Positions 3,696-62,294 of a stretch of DNA of 64,000 nt are shown here, piece after piece (the stretch's first letter is position 1; each line of letters starts with the position of its first letter). The DNA is from a virus. The notes under the pieces are model-generated. The model made no database searches. It had not been told where the DNA came from and was given only the letters and a program-made list of their open reading frames with translations. A program made the translations under genes and the position numbers. Location of the stretch: positions 15,948-79,947 of the IMG/VR virus record IMGVR_UViG_3300022690_000671; one strand, given 5' to 3'.

Positions 3696-4307
3696 ATGAG
3701 TAAGACACGTTTTGTAAGTATTGTTACAGTCGTAGAAGTTCAAGCTTCATCCAATGATGCGGCTCTTAAACTCGCAAGAAGGTATGTTGATATTAGTACT
3801 GGACCTGGCGATATCGTAAATGTTGTAGAAAACAAAACTCGTTTCTATGATATAACTGAGGACTATATTTTCTATGAACTTTATGACGCGGAGGAAGTCG
3901 AAGAGTATGAAGAATACGAAGATTATATAGAGACCGAAGATCAGGGAGTTTCCGATGGGACCACAACGTCGGACTATGTGCCGCTTATCAATTTCGACGA
4001 AGACAAGTTCGATGATGACGGTGGTCGTACTTATTTCGATGCAGATGAGGAATTACGATTACTTAAACTTGAGATTGAAGAAGAGGCTGAGGTAGATAAA
4101 GCTGTTATTTCAGCATTAGACCAAGCCCATAAAGATACGAAGGAATACCAAGAAAATGGTCGAACCTATTTCGATGTAGACGAGGAATTGCGCCTTGTTC
4201 AAGAAGAGGCTGAAGTTGATGGTTCTATTACTTCAGCATTAACTCAAACATATGAAACTGCTATGAGAGAACTAGGCGATAAGAACTACCAAAAAAACGC
4301 AGAATAA
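3696..4307 (+). CDS. Hypothetical acidic protein with internal repeat
   Basis: GAGG RBS. GRTYFD.DEELRL...EEAEVD occurs twice. Confidence 0.7.
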   Translation: MSKTRFVSIVTVVEVQASSNDAALKLARRYVDISTGPGDIVNVVENKTRFYDITEDYIFYELYDAEEVEEYEEYEDYIETEDQGVSDGTTTSDYVPLINFDEDKFDDDGGRTYFDADEELRLLKLEIEEEAEVDKAVISALDQAHKDTKEYQENGRTYFDVDEELRLVQEEAEVDGSITSALTQTYETAMRELGDKNYQKNAE

Positions 4308-4310
4308 ATT

Positions 4311-4709
4311 ATGGCCCTTACAGACGATCAAATAAGTCGTCTTGGTTATCGCCAAGCATTGACTACAAACAGTTCGCTGCCGTCCGATGATATAAACATC
4401 GGCCTTATATATATTCCATTGGCTAGAAATCTGATGGAAGATCGTTCTACGTATCTAACAGCAACTGATGCTCCGGACGTAGCAGATTTGGCAATAATCG
4501 AGTTTGTTAGATTGACACTTCTTGGCCTTCAGCCGGAAACTGATGTAAGATTTACGACGATGAAGATGAGATGGATGCAATCGGCATCTATTTCTAGACA
4601 ACAAGAAGCTGAAGTTTCGTCCGATTGTTATCAAGATCCGAAATTTAATAAGTTTCGGAAACGCCTTCGTAATTTCTCTGTTCGGGAGAATCTTTGTCCT
4701 GACAATTAA
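4311..4709 (+). CDS. Hypothetical protein (possible virion protein)
   Basis: 132-aa ORF tightly packed in the operon. Confidence 0.55.
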   Translation: MALTDDQISRLGYRQALTTNSSLPSDDINIGLIYIPLARNLMEDRSTYLTATDAPDVADLAIIEFVRLTLLGLQPETDVRFTTMKMRWMQSASISRQQEAEVSSDCYQDPKFNKFRKRLRNFSVRENLCPDN

Positions 4710-5917: not shown

Positions 5918-8900
5918 ATGGCCCAACAGAAGACAATTCGCTTCAGCCAAGGACTTCGTAGGCTTGAGCATTCACAGCTACAACACCCATTTTTGATGCG
6001 AAATAGTCGCATAGAAAAATTGGGCGATGTACGACACGTCAAGACTGGTGTGACGCTTGGAGACGACTGTCCGGGCGGTGCCAAGCCTTGGTTTCGCCAC
6101 GACGATGCGTGGATTACTGCTGCCGATGGTGTTCTATCTGGGGACTTCTTTAAACGTAGACTTTATACGTCCGATTTCGTTAATCAAAAACTTCAGAAAA
6201 GAGATCTGGATAACAATATCATTGAGGACCCTGCTTATCTTTTCAGGGTTAATTTCATTAGTGGAGCCAATGAAGGATTCAGTGCCGACTCTTCTGATAT
6301 TGAAGGAATCACGAATGGTAAAGCAGTAGATTATGTTTTCATTCCACATAACGAAAATGATGAGGCGGGGCCTTGGCATTTTCTTACATTTATCGCTAGA
6401 AATCCTGATGCTGCATCTGGTGACATTGTTGTTCAAAAACCAAAATGGAGAATGTTGGCTAATGGTGAAGCTGCATATGTAGATGTTTATCGCACTGTAG
6501 AATATGATTTGACGAACAGGTGGAAATATCAATTCCGTGGAGTTCGTGGACTTCAGGATACTGAAACTACTGAAGTTTTCGATGTTTTAGGACGTAAAGT
6601 AAATCCTGTACATGTTACATCTTTATTTGAACGACAAAGTACCGGGATACCTGCTTCTGCGTTCCATTTCGAAGGCAGAATGACATTAGGCGATCAAATT
6701 ACTCAACCCGATTCGTCGTTTATGGTCGGAGAAGATGCTTTTATAGGGGAATATGAATCGGCCAGGTATTGGCCACTAAACATCGAAAAGAAAGATCAGG
6801 GTACATCAGATGCTCTTGGCCCTATTCTCGATAAACAACATAATTTTTGGTCCGCACAAAAAACAATAAGTGGCGGTGGGTTGCTCAATACAGCCGATAA
6901 TGGCGTAACTGGTCCTGTAGCAAAAACCATGTTTAACCATGCTGGTAGAATGATGTATGGAAATGTTAAAATTCCGTTGAAAAAGCCTAACCCTACTATT
7001 CATTACAATATTTCGACGCTTCAGGCGGCTGGTGATTTTACAGTTCGTTTTCAATATGAATATGATACTCCAGAAGGAAGAATATATGGCCCCCTTTCTG
7101 AAATTATGAATCGTGTTACTACTGTAGTGCCGTGGGAAGGCGAAGATGCTTTACTTGTTTTTGCGGAGGGACCCGGTCTTGGTAGCGGAGAGAAACTGAT
7201 TGAAAGAATTGAACCTAATGAAGCAGGTAAATATGTATCGACCTACAATATTCTTGGAGGCAACTTTACATATACTTCAGTTGGATTAGAGGACAAGATT
7301 CAAACCGGAGCATCTTTTGTGTCTGGACCCAATATAATTAGCGCTACTGTTTCTCTACCTAACTTTGTTTTCATGGCCGACCAAAATAGACCATTTGAAG
7401 TGACTTATGTAGGATTTCCCGCACCCGATAGTCAAGAAATCGTTGCTCTAACGGGAACACGACTAGCTGAGGAGGAAGCTCTAAAAGGATATGATTTTTA
7501 CGTGTTTACAGATAAACATGTGTACCACGCCCAACGTAACGATAGTACGGTTGTTTTGGATTTTCTAATTCACGGGGCTGGACTTCTAAGAGGAAACGCA
7601 GAGAACCCTCTATATATTGCTGTACGCGACGGAGTAGCATTTGCTGGTACTGATAACAAAATTTATTTTGCGTCTGGTAGACGCACCACAGAACTCTCAC
7701 AGGAGGTTCTGGGCAACGACGGAGTGCGTCCCCTTTGGACAAGCGTAAAAGACATTACATATTCAAACTTATGGAATGAGGTTGAGGTAGGAACTGACAC
7801 CGGAGTCTGGGTCTATAGTTTTGACCAGACCGGATGGATTGCTCATCGTGACTTTAAAGCATATGAGACTCTTTTGAATCCTGGAGGAGAAGCACCTTCC
7901 TCTCAAACTGCACCATATGATATTTCAGTGTTTTGGGAAAAATCATTTACGCCCAGTGTTTCGGTTCTGACTCACAATGCACAACAAGTGATTACCATCA
8001 CCGATTTTGGTATTACTGCGGAGGTAACAGCAACAACTCTCATGCTTTTTGATGTTCAGGTAAATGGTCTTTCACGAGGCGAGATTGCTTTATCAGGAAC
8101 ATCTAGTTTTTACAATGGGAACACAATAGTTCTTCTTCCCGGCGAACAATTGGATATCGTTGCCCCAAGCGTTGTTGATTCTAATGTTCAGGATTCTCTT
8201 ATTTTTGCTGAAGCAACAGCAGAATTTTTGTTACCTCCTGGTTTTGTGATAGAAACAAGAACAGAGGCTTATGATATTTCGGCATTTTGGGAAAGTCGTT
8301 TGTTCGACGAAACGGCACTACCAGCACCCACGATTCTGCCAAATCAGGAAGTATTAAGACATATTGTCAGGCGTAATGATATTACTATAACAGAATTTGG
8401 TGCTGCTGTTGAAACCATATCTACTTCGTTGGGTACTTTATTTGACGTATATATAAACGGAACAGTTATCGGACAGATAGTTCTTCCAGTTGGAGCCCTA
8501 TCGTCTACTCTATGGTCAGGACCAAGTTCAATCTCCGTGTCTCAGGGAGATATCATTCGTATCGTAGGACCAACATTACCTGATTTTCACTTAGCAGATA
8601 TAAATGTTTTTGCTACTGCTACAATACAAGTACAAGTTACCGTTGCTGATCCTGATATTGAAGACGACGACAATGCGACAGAATTTATAGATTCGGCACA
8701 TCTATATTATTGGCACGAACGCCGAGGAACCATTATTAAAGATAAACCTTTACAAGGTAGTGATCCTGGTCCTCCTGAATGTGTTCTTTGGAATGGTCAA
8801 GGACCCATAATTACTCCAAACTTTATAGAAATGCAACCGATAAGGTCTTCTATTACAATGAAAGTTAAAGAACTTCGTTGCGATTTTGATCCTCTTTCAA

Positions 8901-17700: not shown

Positions 17701-20700
17701 CACTGATCTTTCGAGAGGTCATATAGGAATAAACGATAGTGACGAATATTTTGCGGACCACATGGGTCATGTTTTCCGTTCTCCTATTGGTAACAGTGTT
17801 GATGAAATTACTCATTATCGTAGAGGTGCGATACTTGTCGGAAAGGTCGAAGATGCAAAAGTAGGACAATTGTTAGACGAAAACAACGTGGAACCGGGCG
17901 ATATTGACGATATTGATCTTCTAGGTCATGAGGTTTGGTCTTCGCTTGTCGAACAACAAGGAGATACACCAGAACCATTAGCAATAGATCCTCTTGAAAT
18001 TACTGAGTTGGCCCTGCGTGGACAAAGAAGCTTCTTACTTGATCTAGGAGGTGAGTTACGTGGTCAATTTCAATCTCCCGGACTTAAAAAGGCTCTTCAA
18101 GCACTTGAAAGAAACGAACGCCCCCAAGAAATACGCTCCATAGCTGAAGGCAATGAGGAGTTAGAAGATTTCAACCGTAGACTCAAAGACTACGCTGCTC
18201 TATGGGATCAACGTGAGGCCATTTTGAACCCTATTACTCCTCTTCGCGATTCTCAGGGTAATCCTGATTGGGTAACAGCAGAGATTCTTATGTTAGATGA
18301 CGATATCAATGAGATCTCTATTGATGATGATAATACGGTTGTTGGTTTTGTTGAAAACGAGAATAGCGAAACGCTTTTTTACAGACGCAACCTCGCCGAT
18401 CAGTGGGAATCTGTAGAAGAGATCACGGAAGAAGAACATGGTAAGGCCCTAGAAGTCGCAGAGAAACGTTTGATGACTATGCGCAATGAAGGCACTGTTT
18501 TCACAATCAACGGCCAAGTTGTTGCAGATCTCAAAGTTCAATCTGCTTCGAAGAAACGTAAAACTGCTGAAACTGCTGCTATTAAAGCAGGGGAAAAGTA
18601 TAAGGGTAAGGCCGAGGCCGCACTAAGAGCGAAAGCTGAATTGGCGTTAAGTATTGTACCAGATGCAATGACTCCCAGCGGGGGACCTGCACTGCGTACT
18701 TTTGTGCGCTTGGTTAACGACTATAGAACTGACGTTGAATCCTATCTCAGGGCAGAAGATGCGTATCACGAGGCAAATATTGGTTTAGAAGAAAACCCTG
18801 AAGACGAGATTAATGACAACGGTCGTGGATTTCGTAGTTTCCGTAAGGACATAGAAGCATATTTCAGTGGTAAAGGTATTGCCATATTTGATGGTAAGGA
18901 TCCTTCTGATCTCGCGAATCGTAGTCTTCAAAAGATGATTCATCAGGAATCTATGGCGAGAGTGAGACTTGAAGAAAACACAACTGCCCCAGAACTAGAC
19001 GAAGAAATTCAACGTCAGATATCTGATGGTGTGGTTAGGGGTTTGAGTCTAACTGAAATTCTCAATGAACTACCAAAACAGAATCCTCAATCTGTTGAAA
19101 ATCTGTACAATGTATTAGCCTCATCCATAATTGGTGTTGATGAGGATATTGATTTTGAAGATCCTCACCTGGACATTAATGACATAGTATCGTATTCTAT
19201 GTCATCGCCATCGCCTCGTGTTCGTGAATCAAGAGCACGGCGCGTAATATCTTGGTTTAAACCTAGTACTCCTAATATACACCGTCGAAATGTTATATCT
19301 ACCTCGTTTCGTCGTCTCACATATCAAGCTGCGAAATACCCTGGCGCAGTGATGAATATTGCTCGTAAAGTGTATGCTTCTCCTGAAAAAAGATTAAGGG
19401 TAGGTGGAGTTCCTAGAACTTTATTTGAAGCAAGAGAATTCGAAGAAGAGAAATGGTTTACTAAATATCTTGATATTCAAGAAGATGCTGATAGGTGGAT
19501 GAAGAATAATGTTCCTATTGGAAACAGAGAAAAAGCATGGGGACGTATTGGTGCATTACAGCGTCAACCAAGTCTCGCAACTGCGACAGATCGCGATCAA
19601 GCATTATTGGGATTTGCAAATCAATTGCATAACCTGATGGAGAAATTTGGCAAATACTTGAGTGATGAAAAAAACGACGATTTCAACCTTCTTTCTGAAG
19701 CCCAACTTATCCAGTTTGATCCTGTAAAGGGAACGCGTTACTTTCCTCGTACCTGGAATGCTATGGAGATGGAGAGAAGAGAGTCGCAGTGGAAGGAAAT
19801 CCTTCGTCGACAATCGCTTCCTATTTTCCGTAAGCGCATAGAAGAAAAACGGAAGGAATTAAATGCCGAACTTCTTGAGGCTGAAGCTGATCTTCAAAAA
19901 GCAATAGATAAGGATTCTGATTCCAGAGCCTCAAAAAGAGGTAGAGACCTCGTCGATATCGTTAAAAATAATTTACAATCTCTTGATGGAACCCTTGACG
20001 AATTTATCGATCAAATATTCAATAAGATTACAAAGGGCGATACCTTTGCTTATGATAAGTGGTTATTTAGCGACAAGAGTCGTCTTATAAGGGAAATGCT
20101 TGATACTTTTCCTAATGCTCCTCGTGGTATCCACGCCAAACAGCGTAAGTTATGGTGGATAAACGAAAACGAATTTGCACAAGCTAATTTCTTGGCTGAT
20201 GATCCGCGTGATGCGTTACCTACGTATCTAAGAAACTTTATTCGTCAAAGAGAATATATTAGACGTTTTGGTCGCAGTAATCAAGAACTTGAGATTACTG
20301 CTAAGGAAATGGAAATTATCGGTAAGGCCAAAGGTTATGATTCGAAAACAATTAAAAGCGACATAGAAGAATTCAAACGAATAATGGAGGGTCTTGCCGG
20401 AGTCTTGCATATCGAAAATATTGCAAGATATCACGGTGCTGATAAAGTTATTCGTTTGAGTCATACACTATCTGTTATGTCCGCGCTAACCTTTACGGGC
20501 GTCACGTCATTTATTGAAACCGCTGCGATTCCTTTAAGATTTGGTTTTGAAGCAGCGGCGTTAGGACTTACAGCACTTCCTGGCTTTGCCAAGGAGAAAA
20601 TGGGTGTACCAGTAAGAGCCTTTATGAAGGGTATTGGTATTATGGTACCAAAACACTTTGGGCGTAGTCAAATTATGGAAATGGGTAGAATGGTGGCTGT

Positions 20701-24707: not shown

Positions 24708-25705
24708 ATCTGTAACCCCGCAAATTCTTTGAGAGAAATTGGAAACCCAGCAGAAGAGAAATGCCCCCCACCACCGAGAGATTTAGCTAATTTGCCTACG
24801 TCGTATAAAAGACCCTCCTTGCGACTACGAAGATTGAAAATTACGTTTTCGTCTCCTGTAATGAAATAGCTCATGGTAAAGGCCCACTCTGAATGAAGCG
24901 CCAAAGCGGCGTGGTGGGTTTCAGAAATGGTGTGAGAAAGATTCGCCAGTCCGTATGGGATACTATCCTTTATACGTTCTTGGGCAGTGAAAGTTGCGGC
25001 TTGTTGCTCTGCGATCATATCTCGATAGAGAATCATTGCTTTGCCTTGTTCAAACAATCTAGGATAATATGGACCAACGTAACTTATTTGATTTGGTTTT
25101 TCTTCATATAGATTTTTCAAAGCTTTAAATCCGTACTTATGAATGTACGATTCCAAAGCTATTGTGTATTCGTCAGTATAAGGCAACTCCCAATTCCATA
25201 GATCTCTATCCTCTATGTGGAGTAGAATAGGAGGAATAGGTTCAATACTTATGTTAAGAGGAACATAACCATTCCAATAGTACCAGGCCAGTGTTGCCGC
25301 ACTATGATCTGGAGCATATACCCATTTAAAATTGTTACCTTTGTCCGTTGCAGTAATAACGTAAACAGTTCCCCAATCATATTCTGATCTCGTCTTATTA
25401 CCACGCTCTACAGTATTAAAAAATTCTTTAAATGCATCGAATCCATACTGGTGATGATCGATAACTGTCACAGGAACGTGGAGATTGAAGAGTTGTTCTG
25501 GAGGGTAAACCCAGTCGAGGACCACTAATTCCTTTGTGTCATGAGGCAGTTGTGGTACAATCTTTCGTGATCCTCCCATGTGACCCGTCGAGAAAAATGC
25601 CAATTCCGTGTTCAAGTATTGTCTACACCACCACCAGGTGGCATATGCAGCGCCCACACCATCCAGGTCGTCGTCGTGTAGTATTACTACTTTGTGGTTT
25701 TTCAT
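24704..25705 (-). CDS. DHH/DHHA1 family phosphoesterase
   Basis: HDDDLDG, VLD, IDHH, EDRDLW, LRS, GGGGH..AG motifs. Confidence 0.9.
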   Translation of the reverse strand: MKNHKVVILHDDDLDGVGAAYATWWWCRQYLNTELAFFSTGHMGGSRKIVPQLPHDTKELVVLDWVYPPEQLFNLHVPVTVIDHHQYGFDAFKEFFNTVERGNKTRSEYDWGTVYVITATDKGNNFKWVYAPDHSAATLAWYYWNGYVPLNISIEPIPPILLHIEDRDLWNWELPYTDEYTIALESYIHKYGFKALKNLYEEKPNQISYVGPYYPRLFEQGKAMILYRDMIAEQQAATFTAQERIKDSIPYGLANLSHTISETHHAALALHSEWAFTMSYFITGDENVIFNLRSRKEGLLYDVGKLAKSLGGGGHFSSAGFPISLKEFAGLQI

Positions 25706-49050: not shown

Positions 49051-49146
49051 ATATAGGCAGATCGTGGGGAAAGTAATCTGTCTTCGTAGTCCCCACGATC
49101 TGCCGGGGGTCGGCAGGGCTCTACTAGAACCGACCAATTTAAATTA

Positions 49147-49172
49147 TACGAACAATTGTGAAGAATGTTTCA
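49147..49172 (-). promoter_or_regulatory. ECF-sigma-like promoter TGAAAC-N16-CGTA
   Basis: Same spacing at four intergenic sites. Confidence 0.6.
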
Positions 49173-51800: not shown

Positions 51801-51904
51801 AAGGCAAAGTCAGTTATGTGGTAATATAGATAACGGCGAGATTCTTTCTTATGTGTGAATCTCGCCGTTATCCTGTCCGAAGTGGTCGATCATACTTGAT
51901 CTTA

Positions 51905-51930
51905 TACGAAGATGAGATCAATTAGTTGCG
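51905..51930 (-). promoter_or_regulatory. ECF-sigma-like promoter CGCAAC-N16-CGTA
   Basis: Same spacing as the other three sites. Confidence 0.5.
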
Positions 51931-53149: not shown

Positions 53150-53164
53150 ATTAGATTTACAATA

Positions 53165-53190
53165 TACGAAAACTTTAGATAAAAGTTTCA
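53165..53190 (-). promoter_or_regulatory. ECF-sigma-like promoter TGAAAC-N16-CGTA
   Basis: Immediately upstream of the tRNA-Arg/Lys/Pro/Cys/Glu run. Confidence 0.65.
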
Positions 53191-53997: not shown

Positions 53998-55227
53998 CTA
54001 AACTATATCTCTCCACTGTATACCACCTACCATAGCCATATTGTTCGCCGATGGTCTAACGGCTAAATATAGTTCGTCTCTAGTTCCATCTATTAGAGAA
54101 CCCAAAAGTAATGTTTCATTAAACAAATCTTGATTTACAAAATCTACATTTGCGTTTATATATCCCCCAGCAAGGACAGTTCCTCCTGTTAGTGTTGAAT
54201 TGGACGAATTCCCTGCATTTCCAACTGCAAATTCTACAGAAGTATTATCTATTCCATTAAAAGTAACCGCATTGGCAACAACGGGATTCATAATTAGAAG
54301 CCACTCAAAATTAGAACCTGGAGGAGCAACGTTAACTTCATTTAGACTTATCAATACTGGTTTAATTGTTGAGTCCAGGGCTGTTGTTTTCAGTCTAAGG
54401 GCACAAATAGTATAGATAGTCCCTGAAACATTTGCGTTGATAGATGAGATTCCTGTTGAAGCGTAGCGTAACGATCCATCGTTTTGTCTACCTCCTTCTG
54501 AAATAACGGTTGCGCAGATGTGTTTGACCGATGCAGAAGGCCCTGTACCATCGTTTGAAATTTCATATCGTAGTGGAAGATTAGGTGTTGATAAATAGAC
54601 AACGTCTTCAGTATTAACGTGATCAACTTCGTGAATATATAGAATTAATCCGTTAATAAAAAAACCAAACCTGACTCTTCCTGAACCACACTCGTAATCG
54701 ATTATAAAATTTTGAAGTTTGTTAAAGTCTAATATTACTCGGCTGTCTCCCGAATCGTCTAGTTGATTAATTACCCAATCAGATCGAGCAATAGCTGTAT
54801 CTACAGGAGATCCCGATGTAGAACTTCGAACAACAACTTTAATGCTTACACCGTCATCTTCGAAGAAAAATCCGTTGTTCTCATCGAAAGCTCCTATGCG
54901 TCTAGTTATACCGGGCGTACTTACTCCTAATATACCTGACATCAAAATCAATTGTGATTTGCCAGGTAAACCATTGAAATGTCTTTTTGTTTGTCTTACT
55001 CTAGTTCCAGCAGTTGTTGCGGAAACGGAAATGGTTGTTTCAGATCTATTTGGATTGTGAAACGAAGCCGTTCCAGAGCCCGAAACTTCCTGATCGTCCC
55101 AGAAAAGAGGTAGATTATCATGGATTTGTTTATTTGCCATGATGGTATACTCATTAGATACTCTGAGTCTACCAAAGGCATTGACAACTTGATTATCAGA
55201 AGGGGTTATGGTTACAGTACGTGGCAT
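53998..55227 (-). CDS. Putative virion structural protein (lectin-like beta fold)
   Basis: NAFGRLRVS, RQTK..F...PGKSQ, RIG.FD..NG.FFE, G.VRFGF, TPNLPLRYEI..C.TVISEGG; a pattern recognised from aquatic phages. Confidence 0.6.
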   Translation of the reverse strand: MPRTVTITPSDNQVVNAFGRLRVSNEYTIMANKQIHDNLPLFWDDQEVSGSGTASFHNPNRSETTISVSATTAGTRVRQTKRHFNGLPGKSQLILMSGILGVSTPGITRRIGAFDENNGFFFEDDGVSIKVVVRSSTSGSPVDTAIARSDWVINQLDDSGDSRVILDFNKLQNFIIDYECGSGRVRFGFFINGLILYIHEVDHVNTEDVVYLSTPNLPLRYEISNDGTGPSASVKHICATVISEGGRQNDGSLRYASTGISSINANVSGTIYTICALRLKTTALDSTIKPVLISLNEVNVAPPGSNFEWLLIMNPVVANAVTFNGIDNTSVEFAVGNAGNSSNSTLTGGTVLAGGYINANVDFVNQDLFNETLLLGSLIDGTRDELYLAVRPSANNMAMVGGIQWRDIV

Positions 55228-58884: not shown

Positions 58885-58971
58885 TGGCGGAGAATGTGGT
58901 AGTCGAAACCACTTCACCTTTCGGTGGCCTCTGATTAGCAATCAGGCACATTACCGTTCTGTCAACTCTCC
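58885..58971 (-). tRNA. tRNA-Ser(GCU)
   Basis: GGAGAGT/ATTCTCC-GCCA; TTGCTAA loop; long variable arm CACC-GAAA-GGTG. Confidence 0.9.
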
Positions 58972-59405: not shown

Positions 59406-59576
59406 TTTGCTTTCGATTAAGGACTCAACGAAAACATGAACATCAAAGTCATCTACTCGCCATACTGGAAGTCGAGAATAAACCCATACGATAGCATCAG
59501 TGATAAGTTCACGATTATCTTCCCCAAATTCATTAACTAATGCGTCTATTTCCTTATTTTGCAACTCTACGCTCAT
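59391..59576 (-). CDS. Hypothetical protein; stop codon lies inside tRNA-Asp
   Basis: Ends GGT ACT GTA GCT TAA, which is tRNA nt 1-15. Confidence 0.55.
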   Translation of the reverse strand: MSVELQNKEIDALVNEFGEDNRELITDAIVWVYSRLPVWRVDDFDVHVFVESLIESKGTVA

Positions 59577-59627
59577 TAGGAATCCGGTCTGTGAAATGTT
59601 GCCTTGTTAAGCTACAGTACCGTGTTG

Positions 59628-59834
59628 TTATCTAAAGATGAATGAGTAGTAAATGAACGGAAGAGGATGAACAATCCATTCCCAGGTATCACCTATATCG
59701 AAACGTTGCACCCCAATCAAGAGTTCGCTCCAATTGAATTCAACGGAGAACTCTTCCGAGAAATATTTTAAGGCGTATGCTATGATGACGTTTGCTACAA
59801 CGTAAAATGCGGCAAAGACTAAAAAGTTATACAT
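59628..59834 (-). CDS. Small membrane protein
   Basis: 68 aa with an N-terminal TM helix. Confidence 0.55.
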   Translation of the reverse strand: MYNFLVFAAFYVVANVIIAYALKYFSEEFSVEFNWSELLIGVQRFDIGDTWEWIVHPLPFIYYSFIFR

Positions 59835-59838
59835 AGAC

Positions 59839-60267
59839 TATGAGTTTTAATGACAGAGTTAGGATAGTTCTCGTACTAGGTTAGTCCAAATCCTCTTGGT
59901 ATTGATGGTTGTTGCCTCAAAAAAGGTTCTCCTTTCTTCGAACGACGAATCACAACTCCCGGAACAAAGGTTAATGCTTCGGCCACTACGTAGGAGCCAT
60001 CAGGATTACGCTGTTGTGTTGTTACTTGAACTAAACAACCAGCGTTTACAATCTCCATTGCCTTTGTTGACTTCATCCAGCCCTCAGTTTCAGAAGAGGC
60101 TTTCGAAAGAAGTTGAAACAAATCTCCATCTCCGAAGACACTAACGTCGGACACATTTTTTTGGGTTCCGCTAATGTCAGTATTATGCAACGTTTTCATA
60201 ATTGTTCTCTAATTAGGTTATGAGTTTTAATGACAGAGTTAGGATAGTTCTGGCACTAGATTAATCC
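59839..60267. repeat. 49-bp direct repeat (59839-59887 and 60219-60267) flanking ORF 59876..60199
   Basis: 45/49 identical; first 33 bp perfect. Confidence 0.9.
59876..60199 (-). CDS. Conserved-looking phage hypothetical protein
   Basis: GDLFQLLSKASS..EGWMKSTKAMEI...GC.VQVTTQQ......AEALTFVPG. Confidence 0.75.
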   Translation of the reverse strand: MKTLHNTDISGTQKNVSDVSVFGDGDLFQLLSKASSETEGWMKSTKAMEIVNAGCLVQVTTQQRNPDGSYVVAEALTFVPGVVIRRSKKGEPFLRQQPSIPRGFGLT

Positions 60268-60364
60268 CTGTTCGCCACGTAGGTTTTAGCCTATAGTAAC
60301 CTGCCTACGACATACAGTTACCGAGGTTGCTGCTTAACAGCCAAATTAGGGATCCAGTCTGTCA
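60231..60364 (-). ncRNA. Candidate pseudoknotted structured RNA (unclassified)
   Basis: TGACAGA/TCTGTCA closing stem; GATCCCT/AGGGATT; GCTG-TTAAG-CAGC; GGTAACT/GGTTACT crossing CGTAGG/CCTACG. Confidence 0.55.
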
Positions 60365-60435
60365 ATGTTTGCCTAACGTATCAGATACAAAACGCCGCGA
60401 CGCGCTTCTCTTAACACGTTAGGACTTTATAAAAT

Positions 60436-60560
60436 CGCCAGGAGACGGAGTCGAACCGTTCTTACCTGTGGACTGTGTTGCAGCGTCCTACAACTCCACA
60501 CAACCCGCTATTTCTTACGCTTATTGCAAATCCACATAAGATTTCGCTTGTTGTCCCAGC
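60436..60560 (-). ncRNA. tRNA-like RNA with acceptor stem and T arm but an expanded core
   Basis: GCTGGGA/TCCTGGC; ACGG-TTCGACT-CCGT; long hairpin TGTGGA-GTTGTAG-GACG-CTGCAAC-ACAG-TCCACA. Confidence 0.55.
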
Positions 60561-60572
60561 ATAATATGTGAT

Positions 60573-60917
60573 TGGTGGAGACGGAGGGTAACGATCCCTC
60601 GTGCTGAAAGTCGTCAGTAGTTGCCATCTACATGGATAGCACATCGTGGTGTGCGGCCATCTAACAGGTACTACGGTTGAACGTTGCTAAAGTGACACTG
60701 AGTTTCTTGATCTAAGCAACAAGATCGAGAACAGTGGACGGAATCATTGTGATTGCGGCAAGATCCCCTTCGGAATCTCCGCCGACGAAGTTGGTCTGAG
60801 CCAAGAATTCGTCGACCGTCATTTGTGATGTGTTTGCATCTATGGTTGGTAGGCTCTTTACCTACAAGCACCATGCAGCAAAGACTTCGATCTCTCAGTC
60901 GAATCCATTTCGTCCCC
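60573..60917 (-). ncRNA. ssrA: tmRNA (345 nt)
   Basis: 5' GGGGACG-AAATGGATTCGAC; 3' GAGGG-ATCGTTA-CCCTC-CGTCTCC-ACCA; G3:U70; ATAGAT-GCA resume context; tag ORF 60837-60712. Confidence 0.93.
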
Positions 60918-60929
60918 ATGATGTAAAGA

Positions 60930-61170
60930 ACAAGTCACCACCCTATCCGTCTTTCGGGCAGATTTATCACACAGAACACCAAACGGACTGCGTGGGTTTC
61001 CCTAAGCTGCGGGTAATACATCTAATCCCGGTAAAGAGTCAATGTACCTTCTGAAAGAGTTACCGCTCAATCAGACAACCTTATTTAAGAACGTCCCACC
61101 CACTCATTTACCCGAGGTTCGTTGCAGCTACTACTCGGCACCTTCTTCTATTTCGGCTGAATGGTTAGGC
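60930..61170 (-). ncRNA. Candidate ~240-nt structured RNA between tRNA-Phe and tmRNA
   Basis: No credible ORF. Stems CCTAACCATTCA/TGAGTGGGTGGG, CCGAG/CTCGG, CTGA..GAG/CTC..TCAG, CGGG/CCCG; two GAAA-capped hairpins. Confidence 0.5.
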
Positions 61171-61172
61171 TG

Positions 61173-61244
61173 ATGAATCGGAAGGAATCGAACCTCCGAC
61201 GCGCAACGTTTCAAGTTGCCGCTCTACCACTGAGCTACGATTCA
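61173..61244 (-). tRNA. tRNA-Phe(GAA)
   Basis: TGAATCG/CGATTCA acceptor; GCAAC-TTGAAAC-GTTGC. Confidence 0.9.
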
Positions 61245-61358
61245 ATATTGGGCGGTGACGGAGAGGCCGAATAATAAACATTGACCCAAACACATACATC
61301 TCGCCACCGCCCTTTCCCAGAAACACATTAGAACTATAAACACACTAGAGATATAATA

Positions 61359-61384
61359 TACGAAACAATGACATTAAAGTTGCA
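61359..61384 (-). promoter_or_regulatory. ECF-sigma-like promoter TGCAAC-N16-CGTA heading the RNA island
   Basis: Intergenic; same spacing as three other sites. Confidence 0.6.
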
Positions 61385-61402
61385 TGAAGATTTAGTGAAC
61401 GT

Positions 61403-61975
61403 TTATTGGTGCCACAATATCCAGTTTAATGTTTCCTCGGCCTTTCTCTGCACTGTTTCGACCGGGGTTTCTCTTCCTGTAAGTTCACCTATACGCACTG
61501 GTGAAGACGCACCTCCGGACACACTGTACATAATAAAAATCCACTTATCTTCTCGGTGTTTCCTCATAATCTTTAGTATCCACTTGAGACCACTCATGGG
61601 ATGTCTGAAGTTGCGCGTTTGGTTTTCGTCGCTACCGTGCCACTCGTTTATCCATTTGCTCTTGTTGGTGCTTAAATCAATGGTGTGTTTCTCGATTGTA
61701 AACGACAATCCTGGGAGAGCGACGTTTAAACATTGATCGGCTTCAATTTTACCAACGATCAACTCTTTTCTATCAGGCGAAAGTCGAAATATATGAAACG
61801 CCCAACCCACATCATCTATATACATGACGTGATGTATAAGCTTGTGTCCAATAGCTTCACTATGCTTGGGATCGAGAGGATACGGCTGTATAAAGTCGTG
61901 GTCCGTGGTCAACTTCTGGGCGAAAAAAATTTCATCGTCCAACCGACCGACAATTACTTTGATGGTGAGTTTCAT
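61403..61975 (-). CDS. Hypothetical protein
   Basis: AGGAG RBS before MKLTIK. Confidence 0.6.
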   Translation of the reverse strand: MKLTIKVIVGRLDDEIFFAQKLTTDHDFIQPYPLDPKHSEAIGHKLIHHVMYIDDVGWAFHIFRLSPDRKELIVGKIEADQCLNVALPGLSFTIEKHTIDLSTNKSKWINEWHGSDENQTRNFRHPMSGLKWILKIMRKHREDKWIFIMYSVSGGASSPVRIGELTGRETPVETVQRKAEETLNWILWHQ

Positions 61976-61997
61976 GGTTAGTCTCCTAGTTCCTGGT

Positions 61998-62294
61998 TTA
62001 GTATAGTTCAGGGTTGCAAGGGGCGGGAAACACCAATAAGTCAACCGGACACATCGTGTTGTATATTCCATTGGCGCACCGATCCGCGATATGGGCTGCT
62101 CTACTGCCATAATAAAAGAAACGAGATTGCCGCCGACACGTTTCCCAGAGCAGTTCCTTGAATTTCCTGATTCCGGTCATCGTAGTTAGATTTACTTCTG
62201 TTTCGTCTATGCCCAATGTAGGCAATATGAAGATGAGTAACTCGCGATAATCGGCCTTTGCGGTTGGATCAGGAATTTTTTCTAATAGGGTCAT
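61998..62294 (-). CDS. Hypothetical protein
   Basis: 98-aa ORF with an ATGA overlap. Confidence 0.55.
   Translation of the reverse strand: MTLLEKIPDPTAKADYRELLIFILPTLGIDETEVNLTTMTGIRKFKELLWETCRRQSRFFYYGSRAAHIADRCANGIYNTMCPVDLLVFPAPCNPELY

Follow-up and report, generated by a model that had tools for sequence, protein, structure and literature searches.

A protein-free island in a probable Bacteroidota phage carries tRNA-Phe, tmRNA and a candidate non-decoding tRNA mimic built like phage T4 rnaC

We analysed a window of 64,000 nt, the 3' 64 kb of a linear 80-kb IMG/VR virus record (IMGVR_UViG_3300022690_000671) that is estimated to be 66% complete, and concentrated on an island of 1203 nt (60200-61402, all positions being those of the window) that lies between the open reading frames (ORFs) 61403..62110 and 59876..60199. 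On balance, and with limited confidence, we favour the interpretation that this island is a protein-free RNA operon driven by a phage promoter, whose genuine products are a tRNA-Phe, a transfer-messenger RNA (tmRNA) and a 125-nt non-decoding tRNA mimic that resembles the rnaC of phage T4. To judge from its predicted fold, the mimic is a credible discrete RNA and the sole such element among the unclassified parts of the island.

The minimum free energy (MFE) structure of the 125-nt element is identical to its centroid and reaches -45.1 kcal/mol on the minus strand versus -26.5 kcal/mol on the plus strand; against shuffled sequences, the fold has a z-score of -3.33 on the minus strand versus -0.43 on the plus strand. 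This strand-specific fold, at 60436-60560, bears out the 125-nt tRNA-like RNA proposed in the first-pass annotation of the window. As folded from the single sequence, the element is a well-defined four-way junction without a 7-nt anticodon loop. It consists of an acceptor-like stem of 6 bp (GCUGGG/CCUGGC) with two adjacent wobble pairs, a composite hairpin of 55 nt that takes the D position, a hairpin of 5+7 bp, capped by a GACG loop, that takes the anticodon position, and a T arm (AGA-A-CGG UUCGACU CCG UCU) with the loop UUCGACU. Stacked on each other, the acceptor and T stems give 12 pairs, the length of a tRNA minihelix, and the acceptor/T-arm half of a tRNA is the part recognised by RNase P, RNase Z and the CCA-adding enzyme. 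Two other identities were rejected. An intron-containing tRNA is one of them, as relaxed ARAGORN settings return a poor tRNA-Cys with a broken acceptor stem. The other is a Y RNA bound by Ro60 (YrlA, RF02553): the sole match, at 17.2 bits versus a cut-off of 69, misses the 125-nt element and falls on the leader hairpin and tRNA-Phe, and no Ro60/TROVE gene was found on the 80-kb fragment. YrlA is likewise a non-decoding RNA with a tRNA-like module, but its termini lie away from that module, whereas the termini of the 125-nt element form the acceptor stem.

The closest counterpart in build that we know is found in T4, whose tRNA cluster, with the stable non-coding RNAs rnaD and rnaC adjoining each other at its end, is the textbook precedent for tRNA-like punctuation of a polycistronic precursor (PMC3014915). 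Both RNAs were detected again as late RNAs in 2022 (PMC9697503), and their functions are still unknown (PMC3014915, PMC9697503). The gene order in T4T is tRNA-Arg, 24 nt, rnaD (species 2, 119 nt), 6 nt and rnaC (species 1, 139 nt), while in phage KaAlpha a rnaC homologue lies directly between tRNA-Trp and tRNA-Gly. The fold of T4 rnaC (z-score -4.6) combines an acceptor-like stem of 7 bp and the T arm CCGGGUUCGAAUCCCGG with two hairpins, the first long and composite, the second of 10 bp; in five Tevenvirinae this structure has compensatory changes at 19 of its 46 pairs. The 125-nt element has the same plan: both RNAs are four-way junctions in which an acceptor-like stem is stacked on a canonical T arm, both carry long hairpins in the D and anticodon positions without an anticodon loop, and the 125-nt element, too, is located in a phage tRNA cluster, on the same strand as the neighbouring RNA gene and a few nt from it. 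Rfam holds no family for either rnaC or rnaD, so that for an RNA of this type the lack of an Rfam match is no sign of novelty. The differences are equally clear. The fold of T4 rnaC is backed by covariation, that of the 125-nt element by a single sequence; the conserved rnaC loop motifs UUGACG and CGUCAA are absent from the 125-nt element; the latter follows a tmRNA and not a tRNA; the hosts are probably Bacteroidota in one case and Enterobacteria in the other; and processing and stability, which have been shown for the T4 RNAs, are inferred for the 125-nt element.

Concerning rnaC itself, we observed in T4 (L136:2445-2583) and four Tevenvirinae homologues that the apical UUGACG of the long hairpin is complementary to the invariant CGUCAA loop of the second hairpin. 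The two could form a loop-loop contact that mimics the tRNA elbow, and in the KaAlpha rnaC RNAfold pairs them as a duplex. Long tRNA-framed elements were also sought with a strict motif scan, but as it overlooked T4 rnaC as well as the 125-nt element, it was not used as a survey.

The two known RNAs of the island, tRNA-Phe and tmRNA, stand as first annotated, the former found by both ARAGORN and Rfam (RF00005), the latter by an above-cut-off match over the full length of RF00023 (Table 1). The T arm and terminal CCA of the tmRNA tRNA-like domain align to the Rfam model, and its acceptor stem (GGGGACG/CGUCUCC), as read from the Rfam alignment and the sequence, includes the G3:U70 alanine identity pair. 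The tag frame (60712-60837) opens with a GCA resume codon and runs for 41 codons, an atypical length, to the end ...DLVA-stop, with an internal DLAA. ARAGORN did not call a tmRNA at 60573-60917 even when relaxed. A second or permuted tmRNA was rejected (Rfam 14.7 bits, E 2.3; relaxed ARAGORN settings gave an unconvincing call, and that on the wrong strand). No SmpB gene was found on the 80-kb fragment of this incomplete record, and host SmpB could serve; a phage-encoded CCA-adding enzyme was rejected, as the fragment carries no gene for one. Among large phages, tmRNAs inside tRNA arrays have been reported for phiCbK-like Caulobacter phages and mycobacteriophage Bxz1, and here again the tmRNA gene lies among phage tRNA genes. 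Another uncultured phage (L042) has a tmRNA at 4076-4395 that is permuted (two-piece type), whereas the one in the window is a one-piece tmRNA with a 41-codon tag.

Sequence comparison points to the source of the tmRNA gene. Its 5' 20-mer is identical in the ssrA of three Bacteroidota/Cytophagia metagenome-assembled genomes, its global identity to one Bacteroidota ssrA is about 65%, and the 16 nt directly 5' of it, TGTTCTTT(G)ACATCAT, are common to the locus of that same ssrA (2 of 500 shuffles score equally). From the 20-mer identity and the common 16-nt box, the host of the phage is probably a member of the Bacteroidota, and the comparison suggests that ssrA was captured together with its proximal upstream box from a Bacteroidota-like locus. 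The similarity ends there: the 254-nt stretch upstream of the tmRNA, compared with the sequence upstream of that Bacteroidota ssrA, gave nothing significant beyond the proximal 16 nt, and we rejected the idea that it is a homologue of bacterial ssrA upstream regions.

Table 1. Features of the island and its borders in the 64-kb window.
Feature	Position	Strand	Basis
Promoter-like motif AAC-N16-CGTATA (TGCAAC...CGTATATT)	61357..61381	-	Motif count; promoter function inferred
Leader hairpin, 63 nt, 5 nt upstream of tRNA-Phe	61250..61312	-	MFE -29.6 kcal/mol
tRNA-Phe (GAA), CCA not encoded	61172..61244	-	ARAGORN; RF00005, 63.2 bits, E 6e-13, cut-off 29
ORF-free spacer, 254 nt (formerly a ~240-nt multi-stem RNA)	60918..61171	-	z +0.53; no Rfam match at E <= 10
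tmRNA (ssrA), CCA encoded	60573..60917	-	RF00023, 65.6 bits versus cut-off 47, full model 1-374
Candidate non-decoding tRNA-shaped RNA, 125 nt, 12 nt after tmRNA CCA	60436..60560	-	RNA folding; no Rfam match
Hairpin, 52 nt (12 bp, internal loop, 7 bp), no U tract	60372..60423	-	RNA folding
ORF-free 5' region of next gene (formerly a 134-nt pseudoknotted RNA)	60200..60371	-	No Rfam match
Direct repeat, 54 nt, copy A	60214..60267	-	89% identical to copy B, 59834-59887 (repeat family D3)
ORF, 107 aa, likely Lockin-family signal sponge	59876..60199	-	ESM Atlas feature score 0.93, TM 0.83 to PF26760 clusters

The absence of protein genes, given as about 1.15 kb in the first-pass annotation, is real, since the entire 1203 nt lack a credible ORF on both strands. 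Only three ORFs of at least 50 aa (53-82 aa) occur in the island; they overlie tRNA-Phe, the tmRNA and the 125-nt element, and none has a PHROG family match at E <= 0.01. The two stretches without a classified RNA, 60918-61171 and 60200-60371, contain stop codons in all six frames, and a tblastn search of the island with the 107-aa protein encoded downstream found no pseudogene remnant except a 54-nt repeat; hidden coding was rejected on these grounds. Spurious ORFs disregarded, this is the longest ORF-free stretch of the window, the runner-up being a tRNA cluster of 370 nt. Since the other gaps of 200-300 nt between tRNAs of the region are almost exactly occupied by small ORFs, an ORF-free stretch of 1.2 kb is unusual for this genome.

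A promoter had been placed upstream of the island, and what stands of that proposal is the enrichment of the motif at 61357-61381; its function as a promoter is presumed. The motif AAC-N16-CGTATA has six exact matches in the window versus 0.56 expected. Four are on the minus strand of the tRNA region (49145-49169, 51903-51927, 53163-53187 and 61357-61381) and precede tRNA or small-gene units; the others are at 1716-1740 and 24971-24995. Between the copy located 14 nt before a tRNA-Arg and the copy at 61357-61381, the flanks share 73% identity (repeat family D5). Three of the minus-strand copies are followed 30-44 nt on by strong hairpins (49056-49104, 51829-51872 and 61250-61312), and those after the motifs at 49145-49169 and 51903-51927 are perfect, with 15 bp and 16 bp (inverted repeats I10 and I7). 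The third is the 63-nt leader hairpin, which bears out the first-pass annotation and folds better than shuffled sequences on both strands (z-scores of -2.3 for the minus and -3.3 for the plus strand), making it the weakest of the three supported elements and one without strand specificity. At the other end of the RNA genes, the proposed 52-nt hairpin with its 12-bp stem is equally present at 60372-60423, and the stem includes two G:U pairs. Its folding energy is -24.8 kcal/mol on the minus strand versus -12.5 kcal/mol on the plus strand, with z-scores of -4.68 (0 of 200 shuffles equal) and -1.28, respectively. It does not qualify as an intrinsic terminator, its stem being followed by CAAACAUUGACA, and no terminator-like site was found in 59500-62200; neither a sigma-70-like promoter nor an intrinsic terminator was called on the minus strand within the island. 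The general preference for minus-strand folding that had been claimed thus applies to the 125-nt element and the 52-nt hairpin, and fails for the leader hairpin and the 134-nt stretch at the 3' end of the island.

The remainder of the island consists of two long stretches that had been described as a ~240-nt multi-stem RNA and a 134-nt pseudoknotted RNA. Neither can be told apart from chance. The 254 nt that contain the former have a z-score of +0.53, 139 of 200 shuffles fold as well, and the 100-nt sliding profile is flat on both strands. The z-scores of the 134-nt stretch, -0.97 for the minus and -1.22 for the plus strand, show no strand preference. Its H-type pseudoknot (60278-60322; GGUAACU/GGUUACU with CGUAGG/CCUACG) is real as a pairing scheme, and 15 of 400 dinucleotide shuffles equal its score. 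The ends of both elements are arbitrary, and for this reason the tight spacing of 2-13 nt claimed throughout the island is solid only for three spacers, between leader hairpin and tRNA-Phe (5 nt), tmRNA and tRNA-like RNA (12 nt), and tRNA-like RNA and 52-nt hairpin (12 nt), whereas those beside the two long elements rest on the chosen borders. The fold z-score is insensitive, tRNA-Phe itself scoring about -0.5 in the same profile, and a flat z-score is therefore weak evidence against function; it leaves the two long stretches unsupported rather than disproved. Most likely, the 254-nt stretch is spacer, and the ~170 nt that precede the next gene are untranslated sequence.

These results bear on an alternative in which the island would consist of seven discrete structured RNAs, five of them new, all freed by tRNA/tmRNA punctuation and each with a function of its own. 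We find this improbable. It would account for a whole 1.2 kb being kept free of ORFs in a phage whose tRNAs are elsewhere interspersed with small ORFs, the folding energy of the minus strand is below that of the plus strand throughout the 254-nt stretch, and a pseudoknot equalled by 15 of 400 shuffles is somewhat unusual. Against these points stand the z-scores of the two long elements (+0.5, and -1.0 without strand preference), their arbitrary borders, the lack of Rfam matches and of homologues in the collections searched, and the recurrence of the 3' 54 nt of the 134-nt element after the next ORF, where the proposed pairing partner is missing. A permissive cmscan of 60000-61600 at E <= 10 returned, beyond tRNA-Phe and tmRNA, only matches at chance level. 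The statement that the island holds a set of new RNAs, most of them unclassified, consequently goes too far: two of the seven belong to known families, two are no better than chance, two are simple hairpins, and one is credible as a discrete unclassified RNA.

The gene downstream of the island is of interest for the history of the locus. Its 107-aa product has no match in PHROG or in Pfam (a copy without the Lockin family), and 523 relatives were found in IMG/VR. Proteins of the Lockin family form hexamers that act as sponges for Thoeris signals (bioRxiv 10.1101/2025.07.12.664507), and structural similarity makes it likely that the 107-aa ORF encodes such an anti-defence (anti-Thoeris) sponge, an identification that we offer as a lead. 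It fits the promiscuous distribution of the gene, whose homologues often occur beside tRNAs (directly after them in L019, L034 and L079) and once beside a permuted tmRNA, that of L042, which lies 1.6 kb upstream of the homologue (6001-6252). Because only residues 1-84 are conserved among the relatives, the last 23 codons of the ORF appear to read into local sequence. The ORF is flanked by the two copies of the 54-nt direct repeat, of which copy A constitutes the 3' 54 nt of the 134-nt stretch and copy B overlaps the stop codon, and the repeat is absent from other phages carrying the gene. Conservation restricted to residues 1-84 and the absence of the repeat in relatives argue for a junction duplicated around an inserted cassette, not for a dedicated RNA.

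Taken as an RNA operon with three genuine products, the island would function as follows. Transcription would start at the recurring AAC-N16-CGTATA motif, and the 5' leader hairpin together with the stable hairpin after the last RNA gene would frame the unit, the first possibly as a 5' stabiliser or RNase III site and the second as a 3' barrier or RNase III site. A single precursor that starts near 61350 and takes in the 52-nt hairpin would be plausible. Judging from the structures and from T4, host RNase P and 3' tRNA-processing enzymes would cut at three acceptor/T-arm modules, namely tRNA-Phe, the tRNA-like domain of the tmRNA and the 125-nt mimic, and so free three RNAs. The 254-nt stretch would include the 16 nt brought along with the Bacteroidota-ssrA-related tmRNA gene, and the ~170 nt before the next gene the junction duplicated when the anti-defence gene was inserted. 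As to the mimic, our best guess is that some protein recognises the acceptor/T-arm half of tRNA and that the mimic would serve it as a decoy or sink. Of the punctuated polycistron of new RNAs that had been envisaged, we thus retain the three tRNA-shaped modules, the upstream motif and the lack of an internal terminator, while a whole set of new RNAs is an overstatement.

Several observations weigh against this interpretation. The fold of the leader hairpin is no worse on the plus strand. The ssrA-like box upstream of the tmRNA leaves room for a promoter of the tmRNA itself, in which case the unit would not be one transcript. The two long stretches, of 254 nt and ~170 nt, may be functional RNAs after all. 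A covariance model of five rnaC sequences gave no match on 60436-60560 at E <= 10, and a model of the 125-nt element gave none in T4, IME523, KM16, KaAlpha and NM4.3, nor in 494 kb of phage loci; these failed cross-matches make the 125-nt element an analogue of rnaC and not a member of its family, and their relation is best described as an analogy of architecture and genomic setting. Finally, no relative of any unclassified part of the island was found in the phage records, IMG/VR, JGI metagenomes and Bacteroidota genomes searched, and without homologues there is no covariation for these parts.

The searches behind this last point covered a broad range of sequences. Against 50,697 phage records, blastn with the island found tRNA-Phe only. 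Neither blastn nor nhmmer found anything in 113 IMG/VR loci. These had been reached via two proteins encoded close to the island, the 107-aa one at its flank and a virion structural protein of 409 aa (53998-55227); by the latter protein, the nearest phages are 45-52% identical. Rfam detected no tmRNA in the eight closest loci, and tmRNA matches in two large related records were rejected because they look like host ssrA beside a provirus. Exact-pattern scans of IMG/VR for the 3' end of the mimic, the 5' end of the tmRNA and tRNA-Phe yielded nothing. Two scans of JGI metagenomes gave no match in the first case and, in the second, 18 unrelated phage or bacterial tRNA-Phe genes without similarity to the island. 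In 20 Bacteroidota genomes, only the 5' end of the tmRNA was matched. With respect to Rfam, the screening of all elements that had been proposed identified tRNA-Phe and tmRNA as members of known families, and left the others with chance-level matches.

The lack of island relatives in the collections searched, and hence of any sign of selection, is also the starting point of a different explanation, which grants a function to tRNA-Phe and tmRNA alone, takes the 125-nt element for a decaying pseudogene derived from a tRNA or tmRNA, and sees the rest as non-coding debris of gene capture and cassette turnover in an accessory region. We regard it as unlikely, though less so than the seven-RNA alternative. 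In its favour, the tmRNA and the 16 nt before it look like a capture from an ssrA locus of Bacteroidota-like type, the 54-nt repeats next to the island enclose a promiscuous cassette, the Lockin-like gene, and the acceptor stem of the 125-nt element has two wobble pairs side by side. In addition, the 10-mer CUCCGUCUCC is common to the 3' ends of the mimic (60441-60450) and the tmRNA (60577-60586), where it occupies an equivalent position, from the 3' T-stem strand into the acceptor 3' strand (5 of 1000 shuffles match); the T arm of the mimic, moreover, is close to that of tRNA-Asp. These two similarities may hint at the origin of the mimic. On the other hand, random decay is unlikely to have left two long, well-defined hairpins precisely where the D and anticodon arms belong, together with an unbroken T loop and a coaxial stack of 12 pairs, the fold gives a strand-specific signal (z -3.3) with an MFE structure equal to the centroid, and T4 rnaC demonstrates that such a build can be conserved under selection.

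The island sits in an accessory, anti-defence-flavoured region, a setting that would make a decoy role for the mimic attractive. Carried further, this leads to the view that the entire island is an RNA-based accessory or counter-defence module, co-expressed with the long-tag tmRNA and placed next to a Lockin-type sponge, in which the mimic, and possibly RNAs of 254 nt and ~135 nt, would be decoys or sinks for host factors that sense or cut tRNAs. This is a speculation of low probability, and if true it would provide a function for T4 rnaC-type RNAs, which have gone unexplained for some 50 years. It has been known since T4 that phage tRNA arrays carry co-transcribed stable RNAs of unexplained role. 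What the present locus contributes is an independent example from a probable Bacteroidota phage, with the rnaC build in an unrelated sequence, coupled to the tmRNA of the phage and with a likely anti-defence gene next to it; the same build with unrelated sequence hints at selection on architecture rather than on sequence. The locus is a singleton and for now yields a hypothesis rather than a testable system.

Elsewhere, the 80-kb fragment codes for a DnaB-like helicase/primase, a family-A-type DNA polymerase, an ORF of 3350 aa and at least 16 tRNAs. For the 235-aa ORF directly upstream of the island, one relative was found, on a Logan contig of 1.4 kb and with 76% identity. An 84-nt tRNA at 58888-58971, without ARAGORN call, is recognised by Rfam with 45.8 bits. 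Oversized tRNA-like genes also occur on a 303-kb contig (L094) of the nearest relative by the 409-aa protein, at 18719-18858, 19180-19277 and 19891-20000. In the 140-nt gene, the acceptor stem is perfect over 7 bp, D and T arms are present, and the anticodon arm holds three tandem repeats of ~22 nt, while the genes of 98 nt and 110 nt are tRNAs according to Rfam, the former with a 4-base anticodon according to ARAGORN.

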